Below, piece after piece: positions 3,201 through 12,071 of a DNA stretch of 64,000 nucleotides. Each line of letters begins with the position of its first letter. The first letter of the stretch is position 1. This DNA comes from Arenicellales bacterium (GTDB taxonomy: Bacteria > Pseudomonadota > Gammaproteobacteria > Arenicellales > JAJDZL01): the NCBI GenBank assembly GCA_965214615.1, contig OZ243952.1, positions 2,125,734 to 2,189,733 on the forward strand, written 5' to 3'. A program made the translations under genes and the position numbers. Under the pieces are notes generated by a model. That model searched no databases, was not told the origin of the DNA, and worked only from the letters and a program-made list of their open reading frames with translations.

Positions 3201-4574
3201 ATGTCTGAATTGCAGCCGAATTATCAATACAAGAGGACTAATGAAATGACCTTTGCACCTGCCAACGGCCATCAATGGCCAACTGATCTGCAAGGCAAGC
3301 TGGACGCCTTCCCGGCACCCTCCTACGCTCCTGACCGATGGAATGACATTAAGCGCGATTACGACTGGACAGAGGTAGAACGGCTGAGAGGGTCGGTGCG
3401 CGTGCGTCATACGCTCGCCGAAATGGGTGCGGAAAAACTCTGGCACGGCCTGCAAAACGAGGACTACGTCGCATCGCTGGGAGCCTATTCGGGCTGTCAG
3501 GCAGTGCAACATGTTCGAGCCGGATTGAAATCCATCTATCTTTCCGGATGGCAAGTGGCCGCAGATGCAAACAACGCCGGACAAACCTATCCTGACCAGT
3601 CCCTTTATCCGGCAAATTCTGTTCCTCAGGTCATCGAGCGCATCAACAATGCGTTTATGCGGCAGGACCAGATTCAGACCATGGAGCGCCTCAGAGGCGA
3701 AGAAACCACCAGCATTGACTGGTTCGCACCTATCGTCGCCGACGCCGAAGCAGGATTCGGAGGTCCTTTGAACGTATTCGAAATTATGAAAGCGATGATC
3801 AGGGCCGGCGCTGCAGGGGTGCATTTTGAGGACCAGCTGTCTTCAGAAAAAAAATGCGGCCATCTTGGAGGAAAGGTACTGCTTCCGACGGCGCACGGCA
3901 TTCGCAACCTGTCCGCCGCGCGACTCGCCGCCGACGTCATGGGTGTCCCGACGGTCATTATCGCCCGCACGGATGCCGAAGCGGCGCGTTTGATCACGTC
4001 AGACATTGACGAGCGCGATCACCCGTTCATCACCGGCGAGCGGACTACTGAAGGGTTCTTCAGAATCACCGGCGAAATGGAAATGTGCATTGCCCGCGGA
4101 CTGGCGTATGCGCCGTATGCCGATTTGATCTGGATGGAGACTTCCACTCCGAATCTCGAACAGGCAAAAGTGTTCGCAGATGCGATTCACGAGCAGTTTC
4201 CAGGCAAGATGCTGGCCTACAACTGTTCGCCGTCGTTCAATTGGCGCAAGCACCTGGAAAGCGACGATCTAGAAGCCTATCAGCGTGAACTTGCGAAGCT
4301 CGGATACCGCTACCAGTTTATTACGCTTGCCAGTTTCCATAGCGTGAACTACTCCAGCTTCGACATTGCCCGCAAGTATCTCGAATTTGGAATGAAAGGG
4401 TATTCGGAACTGCAGGAGTCGGAATTTGCTGCTGAAGAGTTCGGATTTTCCGCAACGCGTCATCAGCACGAAGTTGGAGTAAGCTACTACGATGCGGTCG
4501 CCGAAGCCACAACCGGTTCGGGCGAGTCTTCGACCACGGCGATGGCAGAATCTACCGAAGTTGCCCAGTTCTAA
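3201..4574 (+). CDS. aceA: isocitrate lyase
   Basis: Carries the isocitrate lyase signature KKCGHLGGK, plus [12 protein letters not shown] and ARTDAEAA blocks. Length is 442-457 aa depending on start (ATG 3201 or ATG 3246). Confidence 0.93.
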
Positions 4575-4593
4575 CTCAAGCCAGACTTAACTC

Positions 4594-4663
4594 ATCGGGT
4601 AGGAGGCGAGATTACTCTCGCCGTCCTCCCACACCACCGTACGTACGGTTCCGTATACGGCGG
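4594..4663 (-). ncRNA. group II intron domains V and VI (catalytic hairpin and branch-point helix)
   Basis: DV lower helix CCGCCGUA/UACGGUGG pairs over 8 bp. DVI has GGCGAGA-GUAA-UCUCGCC plus an outer helix with a single bulged A on the 3' strand. The intron terminus is ...ACCCGAU. Confidence 0.7.
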
Positions 4664-4664
4664 T

Positions 4665-6068
4665 TCATGGCAAGCAACGCAGACGTACAACGGTATCCGT
4701 CAAAGACACCAGACCAAGCCGACAAAAGTAAGCAATCGGGAAGGCTTGGTTCATGTGAGAAGCACCGCTGTTCCACCAAGGACCGTAGCCATTGGTGGCG
4801 GATTTCCACGCCCGAACCTCATCCAATCCCAACCGCATCAAGTTGCGAGCGCGTGTGAAGACACGCTTCCATTGCCGCCAGATGATACAGCGCAATTTGT
4901 GCCGTATCCACATGTCGAGTCTTCTCAACAGCACCTTCGCTTCAGCTAGCTTGAAATAGGCTGCCCATCCGCGAAGCAGTCGGTTAAGATGCTCAATCGT
5001 GTAGGTGAGACTTCGTCCGCGCGCACCGCGCAGAACCTCTCGCACCCTGGCTTTGAAACGCCTGCGGCTCTTAAATGAGATGCGCACGGTCGCCCGCGCA
5101 CCGCCCACAATGGTGTAGCCCAGAAATTGCCGTTTCGAAGGCCGCGCGACCGCGCTTTTGTCCTTGTTGACTTTCAGCTTCAACCGCTCCGCCAGAAACA
5201 CTTCCAGACTTTCCATCAATTTCAGGCCCGCTTTCTCACTGCGCACATAGATGTTGCAGTCGTCCGCATAACGGCAGAAACGATGGCCTCGCCTTTCCAG
5301 TTCCTTGTCCAGCTCTGTAAGCAGTACGTTGGACAGAAGTGGGCTCAATGGGCTACCTTGTGGCGTCCCGGTCCGGCGGGGCGAAACCACCCCGTCTGTC
5401 ATCATGCCTGCCTTCAGATACCGGCGAATCAACTTCAAAACCCGCCTGTCGCTCACCTTGCGAGACAACTTGCCCATCAAAATATCGTGATTCACCAGAT
5501 CGAAAAACTTTTCCAAATCCAAATCAACCACCCAGTTGCAGCCCGACTCAACATGCCGTTGCGCCTGACGCACCGCCTGATGCGCATTGCGACCCGGCCG
5601 GAATCCGTAACTGCTGTCACTGAAGTCCGGCTCGAATATCCCGCTCAACACCTGATGCAACGCCTGCTGAATCATTCGGTCCAGCAGTGTCGGTATGCCG
5701 AGTGTGCGAACCCCGCCTTGCGGCTTGGGAATGTCCACCCGACGAACTGGCGCAGGAATATACTCCTGTGCCAGCAGCTTGGCCTTGACCGTTGGCCAAT
5801 GCCGCTTCAGATGTGCTTTGAACTCGGCTACGCCAATGCCATCGACACCGGCACCGCCTTTGTTCGCACACACCCTGTCATAGGCTTTCTTCATGTTGGC
5901 AGGCGAAAGCACCGCCTCCATCAAATCGGCCTTTTGTGGCTGCGCTTTCGTCCGCGTCGGGTTCGCCGTTTCCGCCTCGACACCCAGCGCGGCTGTTGAC
6001 GGCTTCTGTCCGTCGCCTTCCGTCCGGGCCTGACCTTGTCGACCAGCTTGTGTCTTGTTCGGTTTCAT
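4665..6068 (-). CDS. group II intron reverse transcriptase/maturase (no endonuclease domain)
   Basis: RT blocks [32 protein letters not shown] and [13 protein letters not shown], and the catalytic [12 protein letters not shown]. Maturase X-like region [12 protein letters not shown]. The ORF ends at domain V with no HNH tail. Confidence 0.93.
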
Positions 6069-6529
6069 CGGGATTGTCCCTCGCCTACTCGCATCTTGCC
6101 ATGTTCAGCCCTTCAACCGCCGGTGAGCGGCCTACTATGGCTTCTGCTGACTTCTGCTGCCCCATCCCGCATCCTTTCGAATCCGGTAGCCATTGGCAGA
6201 GCAGCAGACCTCCCAGGGTAATGCGCGCGACCTTCCCACTTATGCCTGCCGCATATACGTCCACGGTTTCCGTACAAGTACCGGGCTTTGAAAATATTTG
6301 CCTTCTCACCCACCGTGACCGCCTCGTATGCGATTCCTGTTCGTCAGGCCAGTGGTTTGCCTTCAGCTTCCTTCAGATTCCGCTTCGCAGCGGACACCCT
6401 TGCCGTTCGGCTAACCGTTCCCCTTGTCGGGCCGGTAGCGGACTTGCACCGCCAGGTCATCCGACCACCACCACGTGTGTCGGAATAGCGCCAGTCAAGG
6501 CGCTGCGCGCCATGCCTGGCGCACAAGCC

Positions 6530-6562
6530 AAAAAAGGAGCGCAAATTGCGCTCCTTTTTTTT
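6530..6562. terminator. bidirectional Rho-independent terminator (A6-GGAGCGC-AAATT-GCGCTCC-T8)
   Basis: Perfect 7-bp GC-rich stem (6536-6542 / 6548-6554) with a 5-nt loop, an A-run on one side and a T8 run on the other. It lies 55 nt downstream of the autotransporter stop (minus strand) and would also have served aceA (plus strand) before the intron insertion. Confidence 0.8.
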
Positions 6563-6616
6563 CGGTTCGCCAGGCAGGCGCTTCGCAACGAAGAACCGGC
6601 CTGGCATATTACGAAG

Positions 6617-9600
6617 CTAGAACTTCAACTGGTATCCGATCATGGCTGCATGATAGTCCTCGCCATCAGCCTCCAATCCCGTCATTGCGAGTTTCCACAT
6701 GCCCTGAGAAGATCCAGGAGACTTTATCGCAGCGCCGAAGCTCAACTGGCTTACCGTCTCTGGCATAGACCTTACGCCGGCTTTCGTGTTGAAACTCAAA
6801 ATTCCGTCCTTGTCAGACTGGCGAAGAGTCAGATCGTTCACATCCTGAGAATTCGTGCGCATTACATCGAATCGCATGTGCGGCCTCCACTGAATGCTGC
6901 TCGCCGAATTCAGCCATTGGGTGGCTGCTATCCCGAAACCCAGCTTCGCAGATGTGTAATCCTGCGAGTAGGCGGGAACACTGGCTGTCATGACTGCACC
7001 ATGAGCATCATGTGCATCCTGTTCGAACGTACCTGCTTGAAACGCAGCTGACGGGCCGAATCGCAGACCATTGCTTATCCATGAAGTGCCAGCGCTAAGC
7101 TGAATCTGAGAACTTCGGATTCGCGAATTGCTGATTAGCGCACTGTTTATGACAGGATTGTCTACGACAGATTTCGCTTCGAAGTTGCCCTGTGACACAC
7201 GCAGGTTTGCAAAATGACGGTCGTTGCGCAGTCCACCATTGATCGCGTATGAACTGCCTTCGGCAGCAAATTTGAGCGAATCGACGGATCCGGAAACGTT
7301 CGGCATCATCGATGCTTCGATGTAATATCCGTTGTTTCCCTGCAAAGACAGGCCGATTTCAGAACCGCCGACAGACGCGTCAGAGGTTTCTGAAAATTCT
7401 CCGGTGCTGTTTCGTACCCACAATCGATACGGCGCATCGGTTGCCGCTCCTGATTGCTGAATGCTGCGACTGTCAGCCGAGGCAAAATATGACGAAACCG
7501 GCGAAGCAAACGCATGTGAGGTAAAACTTGTACCAGTATCGTCACCGCCAAGGAAATTGGATAGCAAGACTGCTAGCAGTCCCAAGCCGATCGCAGCACC
7601 GGCACCGCTGCCGGATCCGCCGCCACCACCTCCGGACGCACTGCCCGAACCACCTGCGGCAGGTCCTGATCCACCGGCACCCGGTTCGGGATTTTCAGGA
7701 AGCACGGCAACTCCGATATTACCCGCCATTTCAGAGTCAAAAGTCGCCACTGCGCCACTTTCAACCGTACCGACCATGTGAACTTCGCCGCCAGATTCCG
7801 ACAGAATCTGCAATTCGGTAACAACTTGCGGGGTGTCTGACATGTCTCCGCTAGTGATGCTATCAACAAATAGGATTGGGAAGATTTGATCTTCAGTGGC
7901 AATTTTAGTCTGAACACCTTCCACCATGTCAGGCTCTATGTCAGAATTCAGCTGGGCATAAACAGCCGCATCGGCGCTATCAATTCCTTCGAAGTGCAAT
8001 GTTCCGGCAAACAATTGCCCGGTAAATTTACCTTCATCATCGATATCAAACACCAGTTTTCCCGCCCGATGCACCGTCATTGTTCCTTGGTTTAAATTAA
8101 GACTTCCGGATACCACCAGCACTCCATTTTCGAGGTTCAATGCACTGTTTTCAAAAAAGACGCCGCCACTGAAGTGCGTAGTACCAGGACCGGTTATAGT
8201 CATTGTTTCTAGGCCAAAAATGTCACCCGTCAGATTGAACAGCCGATTTTCTGCAATGTTGATATTCATCTCATCATCACCACCCAAACCGAAATCTATC
8301 TTTCCATCGATCGAGCCGGATTCGGTGACATTCAAAACATCATCGAATGAACCGTCTGCAAACTGAACATTTCCGACAAGCGTGCTTGCAATCAGATCCA
8401 AGGTGCCCTTGCCGCCAATGAACATGACCGCATGCCCCTTTTCGTCCTGACTGGATCCGAACGCTGAAACTTTCGCGCCGCCGCTGACAGTCACCTTGGC
8501 ATGCCCGGTGGTTGAAGATACGCCTTGGGAAGAAAGTGCGGCCAGTATGCCGATACCAATTGTCTCGTTAAAGTCATTAGTGCTCGTATCGTCGCTCTCA
8601 GCGCCAAACGCCGTTATGTTGGCAGTGGCGCCCTTCACCTGAACGTCAACATCGACATCGGCGTCTACATCGTCGCTACTGCTGCTTGTATAAGCATTGG
8701 CCCGGATGCCGATTCCGAATTTTCGCGCTACAGGGGGTGTTGCATCCGGGTCGCCTTCGTTTCCAGCGGTTACCGTGCCCGTATTGATGACAACTACATT
8801 TCCGGAACCGTGTGACTCAACTCCTAAGCCCTCTGTTCGATTGCCGGTCGCCTTGACTGTTCCAGAGTTTGTAACTCGGGCGTCGCCGCCGTTTAGTATC
8901 CTTCCGGAATTTCTTGGATTGTGAAAGAAACCCGCGAAAACACCGCCTGTCAGCCAATCCGCGTTCCCGTTGCCGTTGACTGTGATAGTGCCGCTATTTT
9001 CAGCGTGCGCCTCTCCCTTTGCGTCGTCGATGTTTTCGGCTTCGTCGTGCCAAAAAGTCGCTTCAATGCCTTCGGAGCTATCGCCGTTGGTAATGATTGT
9101 GCCTGAATTGGACACTTTGACCATTCTGCCGCTTTCGGAGCCCGCCGGCGCGATGATTGAAGCGCCATCGGATTCATCTCCGTGCGTAGTGATCTTGCCT
9201 TCATTTGTTCCTCGCGCAATCTGCGACACGGCCCAGGTAGACATTCCGTGAGAATTGCCACCGTGGGTGATGATTCTGCCTGCATTGGATACCATCGCTG
9301 TTCCCGCACCAACTTCATTAGTCACTGCACGCACCCCGTGTGCTCCAGCAACCGTGGAATCTCCCTCGACGCCAGTTGTAATCTCTGCGTCTGATTGGTT
9401 GATAGCCGTAGCGTCACCGCTTTGAGCACCAGCATAAATTCCGTCGGCTCGATGGAAGTTTTCAGTACGATGCTCGAACATTCCGCCCGTAGTTGTAACG
9501 GTGCCGAAGTTTTCGACTTGTACATTACCCGTACCTTCGGTGTAGCCCGTCATTCCGCGTGCGCCTGTACCGCTCGTAGTAATTTTACCGGCAGATTCAT

Positions 9601-10486
9601 TGCGCAGTGAAATGTTGCCCGGAGAATCGTTCATGTGAGCACTTATGCCGTGGGCATTATAAACACCCGTCTCACCACCAAAATCATGTCCGTCACCGCT
9701 TGTTGAAATCTGCTTTCGGTTGATGATGTTGATGTCTCCGCCACCTTTCGGGGTAAGCGGGTCATCATCATATTCGCCAATATCAGCAGTCATTCCCCTT
9801 GCCGCCGTTCCTTGAGCGTCAATCATGCCTTCATTAACCAAGGTAATCGTGCCTGCACCGTCACCGATCCACGCATAGAATCCGTTCGCTACTCGATTTG
9901 GAAAATTTTCGCCTTCACCGCGTTGATGCGTGTTGCCGGTAGTCGTAATCGTCCCCTTGTTAGTCGCCATTACGTTTGCACCAAAATAGCTGCCTACTAC
10001 AAGACCCATACGACCATTACCACTGGACTCGATAATTCCATGATTTTCGACATCAAGATCGTAAGCTGTTCCACCGTCGGGATCAACATCAGATATTGAA
10101 ATCACAATACGATCAACTTCCGTGTCGTTGTTTGCCAACGAACCCGTGATGAACAACGTGCCCACTTCGGTTGCCGTGTCAATACGAAAAACTTCATTGT
10201 TATCGGTGCCATCCATGTCGATAATGACTTTTGATTTTCCCGCAACAAAACCAGAAGTAAAGGCAAACAAATCGACCCACCAGTCACGGTTTGCGACACC
10301 TTCCAAATCACCGTTACATGTGATTTTGAAGTCGGATCCGGTGTTGCTTTGTGAAAAGGGATTATCAGGATTGGATTGGAAATTTACGGTCCCGCGCTCG
10401 ATAGTGCAAGGAGACGTTTGTGAATGAGCTTGCAGGGGAAGAAGAAGCGTACATGCAAAAGCCAGTGACAATATTGCACTGGCCAA
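6617..10486 (-). CDS. autotransporter (type Va) outer-membrane protein with repeat-rich passenger. The listed start is a TTG; the true start is probably ATG 10583, out of frame at the G9 tract.
   Basis: Hydrophobic signal-like N-terminus [19 protein letters not shown]. At least 12 degenerate N-x-G-x-I-T-T-x-G passenger repeats. Gly/Ser linker [28 protein letters not shown]. About 280-aa C-terminal beta-barrel-like region ending ...GYQLKF (terminal aromatic). Confidence 0.85.
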
Positions 10487-10514
10487 TCGATTGGTTTGTA
10501 AAAAACCTTTTATT

Positions 10515-10583
10515 TCATAGCGTTGTACCCCCCCCCTCGTCGCGAAATCTAGCGGGGTGCGCTAGCTTGGATTTCAATAGCAT
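10515..10583 (-). other. SD+ATG-initiated 22-codon leader frame that runs through the G9 tract and stops 4 codons later; candidate true 5' end of the autotransporter gene
   Basis: The minus strand reads AAGGTGaaacaaATG CTA TTG AAA TCC AAG ... GAG GGG GGG GGT ACA ACG CTA TGA. Removing one G (or adding two) joins this frame to the 6617..10486 ORF, whose frame is already open (no stop) from 10561 down to the TTG at 10486. Confidence 0.6.
10528..10536 (-). repeat. homopolymeric G9 tract (C9 on the plus strand)
   Basis: Counted directly: nine consecutive C at 10528-10536 on the plus strand. Confidence 0.95.
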
Positions 10584-11126
10584 TTGTTTCACCTTAAAAT
10601 AAATTCAATATGCTCAACTTTTTCGACGAATTGAAAACCTTAAATACAACGCAAAAGGTGCGTTCAAAGGCGCAATCAACTAATCATTGGCAAGCGATTA
10701 TAAACCTAAATTAATTGACTTGAAAAGATTTACGCGACGGCCAATGCGGAAACAGCCGCTTTCGATTCTCACTGTCCAGAAAGTTTGCACTTCAGATCGA
10801 CGAGTGATGTAATCGATATGCATAGAATTCAACCCTGCCTGCCAGGGCACGGATAAGGTGTCTGCTCGTTTCGATATGGCCGTTATTGGGAGGCGGTTCA
10901 CATCAGCACTCGCGAATGCAAAGGAAATAGAACTTTCCGCAAAGAATCACTATCATATTCCCCAATTCGGCAAAATCGGCAGTGCCCTGCTCGACCGGCA
11001 TGGACTTATGGATTTCAAGGCGATGTTCGCCTTGCAGCATGCGAACGGTTTCAAGCGCGGACGCTCTGCAGTCGGCTTACATCCGCGAAATTGTTCACTT
11101 TCATCTAGGCTCCGCCCAATCAAACT

Positions 11127-12071
11127 ATGGTTTACGACAACGAATCCGCATTTACCGGAAGCAATAAGAACTGCATGGGGTTTGCCTCCACCTACGCAGG
11201 CGCGCTCAGCCTGTTTCGCCGCCCCTACAGCAAATCCGTCACAGACTCGGATCTGATAATCAGCGGAGTCCCGTTCGACCTTGCCGTAACCAACCGGCCT
11301 GGCGCGCGGTTCGGTCCGAGAGGCCTTCGAGCTGCATCATCGCACCTGTCATGGGACGGCGCTACCTGGCCTTGGAATATGGATCCGTTCAAAAAGCTGA
11401 TTGCCACGGACTACGGCGATTGCCCGGTGGATCATGGCGTCCCGGACAAGATACCCGGACAAATCAAATCCCATGCCGCGCACTTGCTAAGCGGTGGAGC
11501 CCGACTGCTTACGATGGGCGGCGATCACTTCATCGCCTATCCGATTCTCGATGCGATCCACGACCGGCATGGCCCGGTATCCCTCGTCCATCTAGACGCG
11601 CATAGCGACACCTGGGAAGAAAAGTCTGGTTACATCGATCATGGAACAATGTTCTACCACGCGGCTCAGCGGGGCCTTGTAATTCCAGAGCGATCCGTCC
11701 AAATCGGCTTGCGCACATGGAACAACCGCACACTGGGATTCAACATTTTTGACGCTCAGTACGTACACGAAAAAGGAGTTCAAGCCGTTATCGAACAAAC
11801 CCTGTCCATTGTCGGCACGAATAATGCCTATCTAAGTTTCGATATCGACTGCCTCGACCCCTCGGTTGCACCGGGAACCGGTACACCGGTTTGCGGTGGA
11901 CTTTCAATGTGGCAGGCGCAAAGCATCATTCGAGGACTGAGCGATATCAACTTTCTCGGCATGGACCTTGTTGAAGTTGCTCCGGCCTACGACGTTTCGG
12001 ACATTACAAGTCTTGCCGGAGCGCACCTGATGCTTGACTTCATCTGTCTGCTCGCTTCAAGAATGGATTGA
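11127..12071 (+). CDS. agmatinase / guanidino-acid hydrolase (ureohydrolase family)
   Basis: Arginase-fold Mn-binding motifs MGGDHFIAYP, HLDAHSDTW, SFDIDCLDP and GMDLVEVAP. 314 aa. Confidence 0.85.
   Translation: MVYDNESAFTGSNKNCMGFASTYAGALSLFRRPYSKSVTDSDLIISGVPFDLAVTNRPGARFGPRGLRAASSHLSWDGATWPWNMDPFKKLIATDYGDCPVDHGVPDKIPGQIKSHAAHLLSGGARLLTMGGDHFIAYPILDAIHDRHGPVSLVHLDAHSDTWEEKSGYIDHGTMFYHAAQRGLVIPERSVQIGLRTWNNRTLGFNIFDAQYVHEKGVQAVIEQTLSIVGTNNAYLSFDIDCLDPSVAPGTGTPVCGGLSMWQAQSIIRGLSDINFLGMDLVEVAPAYDVSDITSLAGAHLMLDFICLLASRMD

Follow-up and report, generated by a model that had tools for sequence, protein, structure and literature searches.

A Poly-G Tract in the Leader of an Arenicellales Autotransporter Gene: a Candidate Slippage-Controlled Switch Recorded Out of Phase

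Is a run of nine G residues near the 5′ end of a long autotransporter gene a switch that turns the gene ON and OFF, or is it an assembly error or a fixed frameshift? The question is raised by a 64-kb stretch of DNA (55% GC; here called the window) from an uncultured marine Arenicellales bacterium, in which a leader open reading frame (ORF) enters a G9 tract and stops shortly thereafter, one G away from fusion with the autotransporter ORF. All coordinates given for the leader and the autotransporter gene were read on the minus strand. On balance, we lean toward the view that this is a genuine contingency gene, controlled by slipped-strand events and recorded out of phase.

Every coordinate that the preliminary description had assigned to the Shine-Dalgarno (SD) sequence and leader ATG, to the passage of the leader through the tract, and to the leader TGA holds (Table 1). 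Its account of the long frame, which is open from position 10561 and has its first possible start at TTG 10486, was likewise confirmed on the sequence. This TTG is the earliest ATG, GTG, or TTG in the long frame, the ORF that it opens (6617 to 10486) encodes 1289 amino acids (aa), and the leader stop codon sits 29 nt upstream of it. The public gene call, P0001 (1284 aa), begins at a second TTG, at position 10471. Neither TTG has an SD sequence or a charged n-region, and the peptide made from either would open directly with the hydrophobic core. When one G was removed in silico (G8), the leader and the long ORF fused into a single ORF of 1321 aa, as had been predicted; G11 gave 1322 aa rather than the 1321 aa originally quoted, a trivial correction, and tract lengths of G9 and G10 led to stops. 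The tract lies inside the 5′ coding region, and its length sets the frame of an otherwise intact ORF. A putative Sec signal peptide, consisting of an h-region followed by the cleavage site AHS↓Q, was recognized by inspection and alignment, and only the fused G8 or G11 reading equips it with a charged n-region. The likely signal peptidase site, ...LQAHS↓QTSPC (A-x-S), was placed by alignment with PKTALS↓Q and PEKSFS↓Q of relatives, which favor it over the LQA↓HSQ site first suggested.

The G9 tract is the longest homopolymer of the window, followed by one A8, at 3847 to 3854, and one T8, and it is the sole G/C run of at least 7 nt. This genome otherwise shows strong avoidance of G/C runs. G/C runs of 4, 5, 6, 7, 8, and 9 nt number 155, 19, 2, 0, 0, and 1, respectively; these counts drop ~6- to 10-fold per extra base, and the extrapolated expectation for runs of at least 9 is ~0.003. 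Across 96 kb of homologue loci, G/C runs of at least 7 occur only as leader tracts. The tract is not a product of chance and has been kept despite the genomic background. GGG, which the tract uses three times in succession, is rarer than any other glycine codon (12.8% over 36 ORFs; 8 of 182 within the autotransporter gene), and the other glycine runs of the gene are written with mixed codons (GGTGGCGGA and GGAGGTGGTGGCGGCGGA). Given this codon usage, selection appears to act on the DNA tract rather than on Gly-Gly-Gly, and the homopolymer appears to be a DNA-level feature rather than a side effect of coding three glycines.

What does the gene encode? When the whole 1289-aa protein was scanned against Pfam and NCBIfam, no family was matched. 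The isolated C-terminal 343 aa, in contrast, matched the autotransporter beta-domain PF03797 with 32.4 bits (E = 1e-7; cutoff, 26). An AlphaFold2 model of this C-terminal part (predicted local distance difference test score [pLDDT], 72; predicted template modeling score [pTM], 0.68) consists of helices followed by continuous antiparallel strands. Its best matches in the PDB were AaaA, EstA, EspP, NalP (1uyn), and BrkA, with E values of 7.5e-9 to 2e-6 and template modeling (TM) scores of only 0.36 to 0.46. The protein ends in ...GYQLKF, with an aromatic last residue. For the passenger, the precomputed annotation gives PF27417 (BigA_3rd), and a profile of the family weakly matches the passenger of 9qe7_A ("autotransporter barrel domain protein"; E = 7e-4). 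The gene product is a type Va autotransporter whose passenger is BigA-like, and the PF03797 and barrel structure matches uphold its original designation as an autotransporter. Whole-protein Pfam and NCBIfam scans miss a domain that the C-terminal fragment alone reveals, and proteins of this family are likely left without annotation or with the wrong start in annotations of metagenome-assembled genomes (MAGs). Just before the barrel, the protein of the window (positions 7550 to 7600) and all its relatives carry a low-complexity linker rich in Gly and Ser and, after it, a strongly hydrophobic, near-invariant helix (..GLGLLAVLL..). The pore-spanning linker helix of classical autotransporters is less hydrophobic.

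To place the leader in the context of its family, we retrieved 10 relatives at 37 to 46% identity and read the DNA of their 5′ ends. Within the species collection, relatives are encoded by just two genomes, the Arenicellales MAG chromosomes OZ243975.1 and OY761535.1, which points to this marine gammaproteobacterial order as the probable source of the window as well. A charged N-terminal extension of 30 to 45 residues precedes the h-region in 9 of the 11 family members (e.g., MNKLFKILGSEKRRPNG..., MNNIFKIIAPEIRMKIGGG..., and MNTYKYSDKGSGKR...). The extensions all begin at an upstream ATG with a purine-rich, SD-like stretch before it, which is weak in the locus L001 and which in most homologues lies 5 to 9 nt before the leader ATG. 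The leaders of the relatives align with that of the window: the window leader (...KLAHPARFRDEGG) pairs with that of locus L002 (...KIIAPEIRMKIGGG), and 3′ of the tract, a stretch of 24 residues in the window matches one of 25 residues in L001. The remaining two members, P0006 and P0007, have short signal peptides with no extension, yet they carry K/R residues before the h-region. Orthologues that start at the TTG position had been named at the outset as evidence that would speak against the proposal, and no homologue among the family members retrieved begins at a position equivalent to the window TTG. The fused reading is, as judged by alignment, the normal architecture of the family.

The extension recalls the ESPR (PF13018), which is also an N-terminal stretch of ~30 to 45 residues ahead of a normal n/h/c signal peptide, and several relatives open with MNKLFKIL or MNNIFKII, by eye resembling the ESPR start MNKIYR.... 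The window leader (MLLKSKL...) is further diverged, however, and the ESPR Pfam model matched none of six reconstructed leaders at E values up to 10. The window leader is a predicted extended signal peptide, but not a classical ESPR; the long extended signal peptide of the preliminary description is supported by the charged extensions of the relatives, although not by the ESPR model.

A long G tract was found in the same leader alignment columns in four further lineages (L001, L002, L003, and L009). In all, eight tracts from five lineages were compared, i.e., those of the window, L001, L002, L003, L009, L012, L013, and L014, and two of the tract-bearing lineages were traced to the Arenicellales MAGs (L001 to OZ243975.1 and L009 to OY761535.1). 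Across the five lineages, two tracts are in frame with the upstream ATG and three are out of frame (window, L001, and L009; Table 1). The corrections that these three require run in opposite directions, with one G to be lost in the window and in L009 and one G to be gained in L001. The leaders that are out of frame retain the look of coding sequence, and that of L009 (MNTKSYKCKYSNESGDRRVVVSTTKLLRR) shows clear homology to the in-frame one of P0009 (MNTYKYSDKGSGKRLVISTSKLLRR). Where relatives lack a tract, its position is taken by G4 or G5 remnants or by unrelated residues. This distribution shows the tract to be a feature of the leader that was either inherited or selected repeatedly, and it shows that in-frame and out-of-frame states both exist in nature.

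Two local peculiarities of these leaders were also observed. In L009 (5355 to 5449), the G10 tract is entered from two ATGs that lie in different frames. The ATG at 5355 has an SD sequence (GGGAGAA) and opens a family-like leader that is out of frame at G10, whereas the ATG at 5389 has no SD sequence and is in frame at G10, so that automated gene calling would yield a seemingly intact gene whose leader (MKVETDEWLFPPPNYSDGGG) is spurious. In the window, a perfect 6-bp hairpin (CTAGCG-CACCC-CGCTAG) lies in the leader coding sequence at 10549 to 10565, 12 nt upstream of the tract, with which its C-rich loop could pair; the hairpin is absent from the L002 and L003 leaders.

The only within-lineage comparison of tract length is that of the L001 (P0002) lineage, which comprises four haplotypes from one sample (L001, L012, L013, and L014; coverages of 306x, 21x, 62x, and 44x) that are 97.1 to 98.4% identical. 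The indels between haplotypes inside the gene measure 3, 9, 3, 3, and 9 nt, all multiples of 3. The ratio of nonsynonymous to synonymous substitution rates (dN/dS) is ~0.03 to 0.04 in the barrel and ~0.8 (about 0.76 to 0.92) in the passenger, where divergence between haplotypes is mosaic, with, for example, 32 differing codons within codons 200 to 300. That haplotype pairs share different segments suggests recombination together with diversifying or relaxed selection on the exposed domain. The three out-of-frame genes (window, L001, and L009) are otherwise uninterrupted over ~3.8 to 4 kb (1250 to 1330 codons) and, as far as can be judged, show the pattern of genes for a surface protein that is maintained, exposed, and diversifying, not of dead genes. 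Pseudogene decay was judged unlikely, given the lack of other lesions in these three genes and the purifying selection on the barrel in the L001 lineage.

How would such a locus work? Under the reading that we favor, translation would start at the SD-preceded ATG 10583. At G8 or G11, the ribosome would read through the tract into a precursor of 1321 or 1322 aa, in which the extended, net-positive leader is followed by the h-region and then by the cleavage site. At G9, the ribosome would stop after 22 codons, leaving the 3.9-kb ORF with SD-less TTG starts only and with no charged n-region; because of these two deficits, the gene would be OFF or at most leaky, with no more than weak reinitiation at TTG 10486 and a precursor devoid of the charged n-region. 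The frame would be restored, heritably, by slipped-strand mispairing when the tract is replicated. The comparisons above establish the anatomy of the leader, show that the tract is nonrandom and conserved in position, and show that in-frame and out-of-frame states coexist. From the general behavior of G/C tracts of at least 9, we infer that slippage can restore the frame, and we likewise infer that tract length changes at a useful frequency and that expression follows it. If real, the locus would offer a clear example, in the little-studied uncultured marine lineage Arenicellales, of a surface adhesin-like protein switched by a simple-sequence contingency mechanism, and such switching would imply fluctuating selection (e.g., by a host, phage, or grazers) on the exposed protein.

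Several observations weigh against this reading. The four L001-lineage haplotypes all share G9 together with a leader region that is identical over 190 nt. The preliminary description had proposed phase variation, with the window gene captured OFF; the homologous tracts of five lineages, in both frames, speak for that proposal, but the G9 shared by these four haplotypes does not. G9 is, moreover, the length of seven of the eight tracts whatever their frame, and the frame differences could therefore stem from flanking indels rather than from slippage of the tract. GGG is likewise read in P0003 and in P0027, a member of its cluster. In the L001 lineage (positions 2993 to 3003 in L001 and 1493 to 1503 in L012, L013, and L014), the last G of the tract and the TG that follows it form a GTG, which stays in the frame of the main ORF whatever the length of the tract and opens a normal signal peptide (MERYFSLKQLL...). 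Since this GTG is in frame at any length, the L001 lineage may be expressed regardless of tract length, and "out of frame" need not mean OFF; the tract of this lineage might serve as an SD-like element or a spacer rather than as a frame switch. Our searches turned up no close relative of the window gene itself. The exact 34-mer adjoining the tract had no match in genome contigs, a degenerate 28-mer of the signal peptide region had none in metagenome contigs, a family profile search of Joint Genome Institute (JGI) metagenome contigs returned 600 pattern matches, none of them a relative, and the N-terminal alignment used as a protein search query had no matches. Given that the 34-mer, 28-mer, and profile searches were empty, no independent short-read copy of the window gene was found. 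Finally, the names of the homologue contigs, of the form ctgN_NNx_c/l (ERZ25070917 and ERZ24894577), together with the MAG chromosomes, point to long-read metagenome assembly, as far as names allow this to be judged, and according to the metaMDBG paper (PMC11392814), the errors that its polishing step removes are "mostly homopolymers."

This last point leads to the alternative that survives best, although we consider it unlikely, namely, that G9 is a homopolymer miscall of the assembly, that the true majority sequence is G8 (or G11), and that the gene is intact and ON, with a tract that may still be slippery. A single-base error would fully account for the window, and the fused ORF fits the architecture of the family. 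However, the ~35 other long ORFs of the window contain no frame breaks, and an A8 run within the isocitrate lyase gene is in frame. The four independently assembled L001-lineage haplotypes differ by no 1-nt indels inside the gene, and they agree on G9 at coverages from 21x to 306x. The out-of-frame state of three of the five lineages, with corrections in opposite directions, also fits poorly with an error that is either rare or systematically biased. Long-read homopolymer calls at such tracts decide whether a gene is annotated as intact, and automated MAG annotation trims such genes to arbitrary TTG, GTG, or ATG starts.

Somewhat less likely still is a frameshift that is real and fixed, in which case the protein would start downstream, at TTG 10486 or TTG 10471 (perhaps by reinitiation), and the leader would be dispensable, or the gene would have been inactivated recently and be in an early stage of decay. 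The public gene call does begin at TTG 10471, and P0006 and P0007 manage with short signal peptides and no extension. In the L001 lineage, four haplotypes keep G9, the GTG at the end of the tract is in frame, and purifying selection on the barrel is strong, which indicates that a tract-bearing gene can persist stably while out of frame with its upstream ATG. The window gene differs from that lineage in that the codon right after its tract is GTA, not GTG. Its TTGs lack SD sequences, and the signal peptide that they would yield lacks the charged n-region, whereas even the short-leader relatives keep K/R residues. Its 3.9-kb ORF contains no second lesion, and a neutral G9 would not persist at the homologous position in five lineages that otherwise have no G/C runs of at least 7.

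Could the frame instead be mended at the level of RNA or the ribosome? RNA polymerase slippage on G9, or a programmed +1 frameshift on GGG GGG G, would yield a fixed fraction of full-length protein from the G9 allele. A homopolymer of 9 is in principle long enough for RNA polymerase slippage, which is established for A/T runs, and on a G run, perfect re-pairing of tRNA-Gly is possible in every frame. Efficient slippage is, however, documented mainly for A/T runs. The shift required also differs between relatives: the window and L009 need +1, L001 needs −1, and L002 and L003 need none. No stimulatory element was detected, the slip site contains neither a hungry codon nor a stop codon, and an Rfam search of positions 4000 to 11300 found nothing in the leader and only a group II intron elsewhere. 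Because the relatives need a +1 shift, a −1 shift, or no shift, and because no RNA element was detected, ribosomal or transcriptional recoding is highly improbable. An invertase-driven promoter switch was rejected, as only short, imperfect inverted repeats occur in 10000 to 11300.

A broader form of the slippage reading, which we put forward only tentatively and regard as rather doubtful, is that a poly-G switch in the signal peptide extension has been retained throughout a family of BigA-like autotransporters of uncultured marine, possibly animal-associated Arenicellales, and that it may have more than two outputs. Three could be imagined: an extended-leader protein, a short-leader protein from a start that the tract itself helps to make, and OFF. 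Candidates for the short-leader start would be the GTG of the L001 lineage and the second in-frame ATG of L009. On this family-wide reading, surface variation through contingency loci would extend beyond the classical pathogens to marine symbionts or free-living bacteria.

The surroundings of the autotransporter gene differ between the window and its relatives. In six loci (L002, L003, L004, L007, L009, and L010), a same-strand gene lies immediately upstream of the autotransporter gene. By Pfam (Porin_1/Porin_4), it is a porin gene in L003 (1590 to 2894), L004 (1221 to 2873), and L010 (1157 to 2677), and it is unannotated in L009 (3340 to 5172), L002 (208 to 1326), and L007 (3 to 1367). A conserved GC-rich hairpin with a T run (AACGGGGTGTTGCAAC...CCCGTTTTTTT) was seen in L002, L003, and L007. 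The window has no same-strand upstream neighbor and instead has a divergent arginase family gene at 11127 to 12071. The promoter-like site upstream of the window leader (Table 1) is weak, given that the scan around the leader found one such site and shuffled sequences would be expected to contain 1.2. A terminator scan of the same region found nothing above the shuffled expectation. The intrinsic terminator downstream of the gene was found by eye and was not flagged by the automatic scan. Directly downstream of the autotransporter gene, beside this terminator, lies a complete group II intron, whose GTGCG motif lies ~8 nt past the T run of the terminator hairpin. Bacterial class C introns typically insert in this way, just behind an intrinsic terminator.

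TABLE 1 Coordinates of the features of the window locus and states of the leader tracts in related loci
Feature	Position in window	Strand	Remarks
SD-like AAGGTG	10595-10590	−	6 nt 5′ of leader ATG 10583-10581
Leader ORF, G9 phase	10515-10583	−	ATG 10583 to TGA 10517-10515; 22 codons; MLLKSKLAHPARFRDEGGGTTL, then stop
G9 homopolymer (C9 on plus strand)	10528-10536	−	Frame determining; 47 nt after the SD-preceded ATG
Autotransporter open frame, stop to stop	6617-10561	−	Passenger has G-rich beta-helix-type repeats
Signal peptide h- and c-regions	10421-10486	−	Includes TTG 10486 and TTG 10471
C-terminal 343 aa	6620-7648	−	Gly/Ser linker, hydrophobic helix (~7550-7600), predicted beta-barrel translocator, end ...GYQLKF
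Promoter-like TTTTCA-18-TATAAT	10697-10726	−	~114 nt 5′ of leader ATG; 10 of 12 positions match
Intrinsic terminator A8-GGAGCGC-AATTT-GCGCTCC-T6	6530-6562	−	
Group II intron, complete	4590-6522	−	
Group II intron D1-D4 (Rfam)	6223-6394 and 6108-6189		
Group II intron domain V/VI (Rfam)	4594-4665		
Intron reverse transcriptase/maturase ORF	4665-6068		RVT_1 and GIIM
Intron GTGCG motif	~6522-6518		
Tract of L002			G9; in frame with upstream ATG
Tract of L003			G9; in frame with upstream ATG
Tract of L001 (contig shared with L008; MAG OZ243975.1)			G9; out of frame with upstream ATG; needs G10 or G7
Tract of L009 (MAG OY761535.1)			G10; out of frame with its SD-preceded ATG; needs G9 or G12

How does the window tract compare with switches that are already known? 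NalP of Neisseria meningitidis has a genic poly-C tract of 9 to 13 residues (PMC5953494). Like NalP (and MspA), the window gene encodes a type Va autotransporter and has a G/C homopolymer of at least 9 in the 5′ coding region, where a frameshift means ON or OFF; the NalP barrel (1uyn) is also among the best structural matches of the window C-terminal domain. NalP differs in its subtilisin-type protease passenger, in its human-restricted pathogenic host, and in that its switching is experimentally documented. The window gene, in contrast, has a BigA-like passenger, an uncultured marine Arenicellales host, and a tract placed in the N-terminal extension upstream of the h-region, and its switch is predicted.

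A second parallel is found in Campylobacter jejuni and Campylobacter coli, in which capD has a poly-G tract in its coding sequence and intact and inactive copies coexist (PMC7168839); in the same study, G9 is the commonest length of the poly-G tract in the promoter of the related capC genes. Genes capD (and capA) resemble the window gene in that the poly-G lies within the coding sequence of an autotransporter and in some members of the family only. Campylobacter is AT-rich, with many poly-G tracts in its phasome and with length variation documented by thousands of genomes. The window family, in contrast, is represented by eight sequences, seven of them G9, and its proteins are unrelated to those of Campylobacter outside the barrel.

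Repeats also occur in signal peptide coding regions, as in the Opa genes of Neisseria (CTCTT) and in hopZ, sabA, and oipA of Helicobacter pylori (CT). These genes share with the window gene a switch in the leader or signal peptide coding region, so that the OFF state costs only a short peptide, and they also belong to multigene families of surface proteins of which some members are switchable. They differ in having penta- or dinucleotide repeats and in encoding outer membrane proteins that are not autotransporters, whereas the window has a mononucleotide tract, placed in the extension that precedes the h-region of an autotransporter. The window tract shares its logic and its autotransporter class with known switches and differs from them in the passenger family, in the host, and in its position within an N-terminal extension that the ESPR model does not match.

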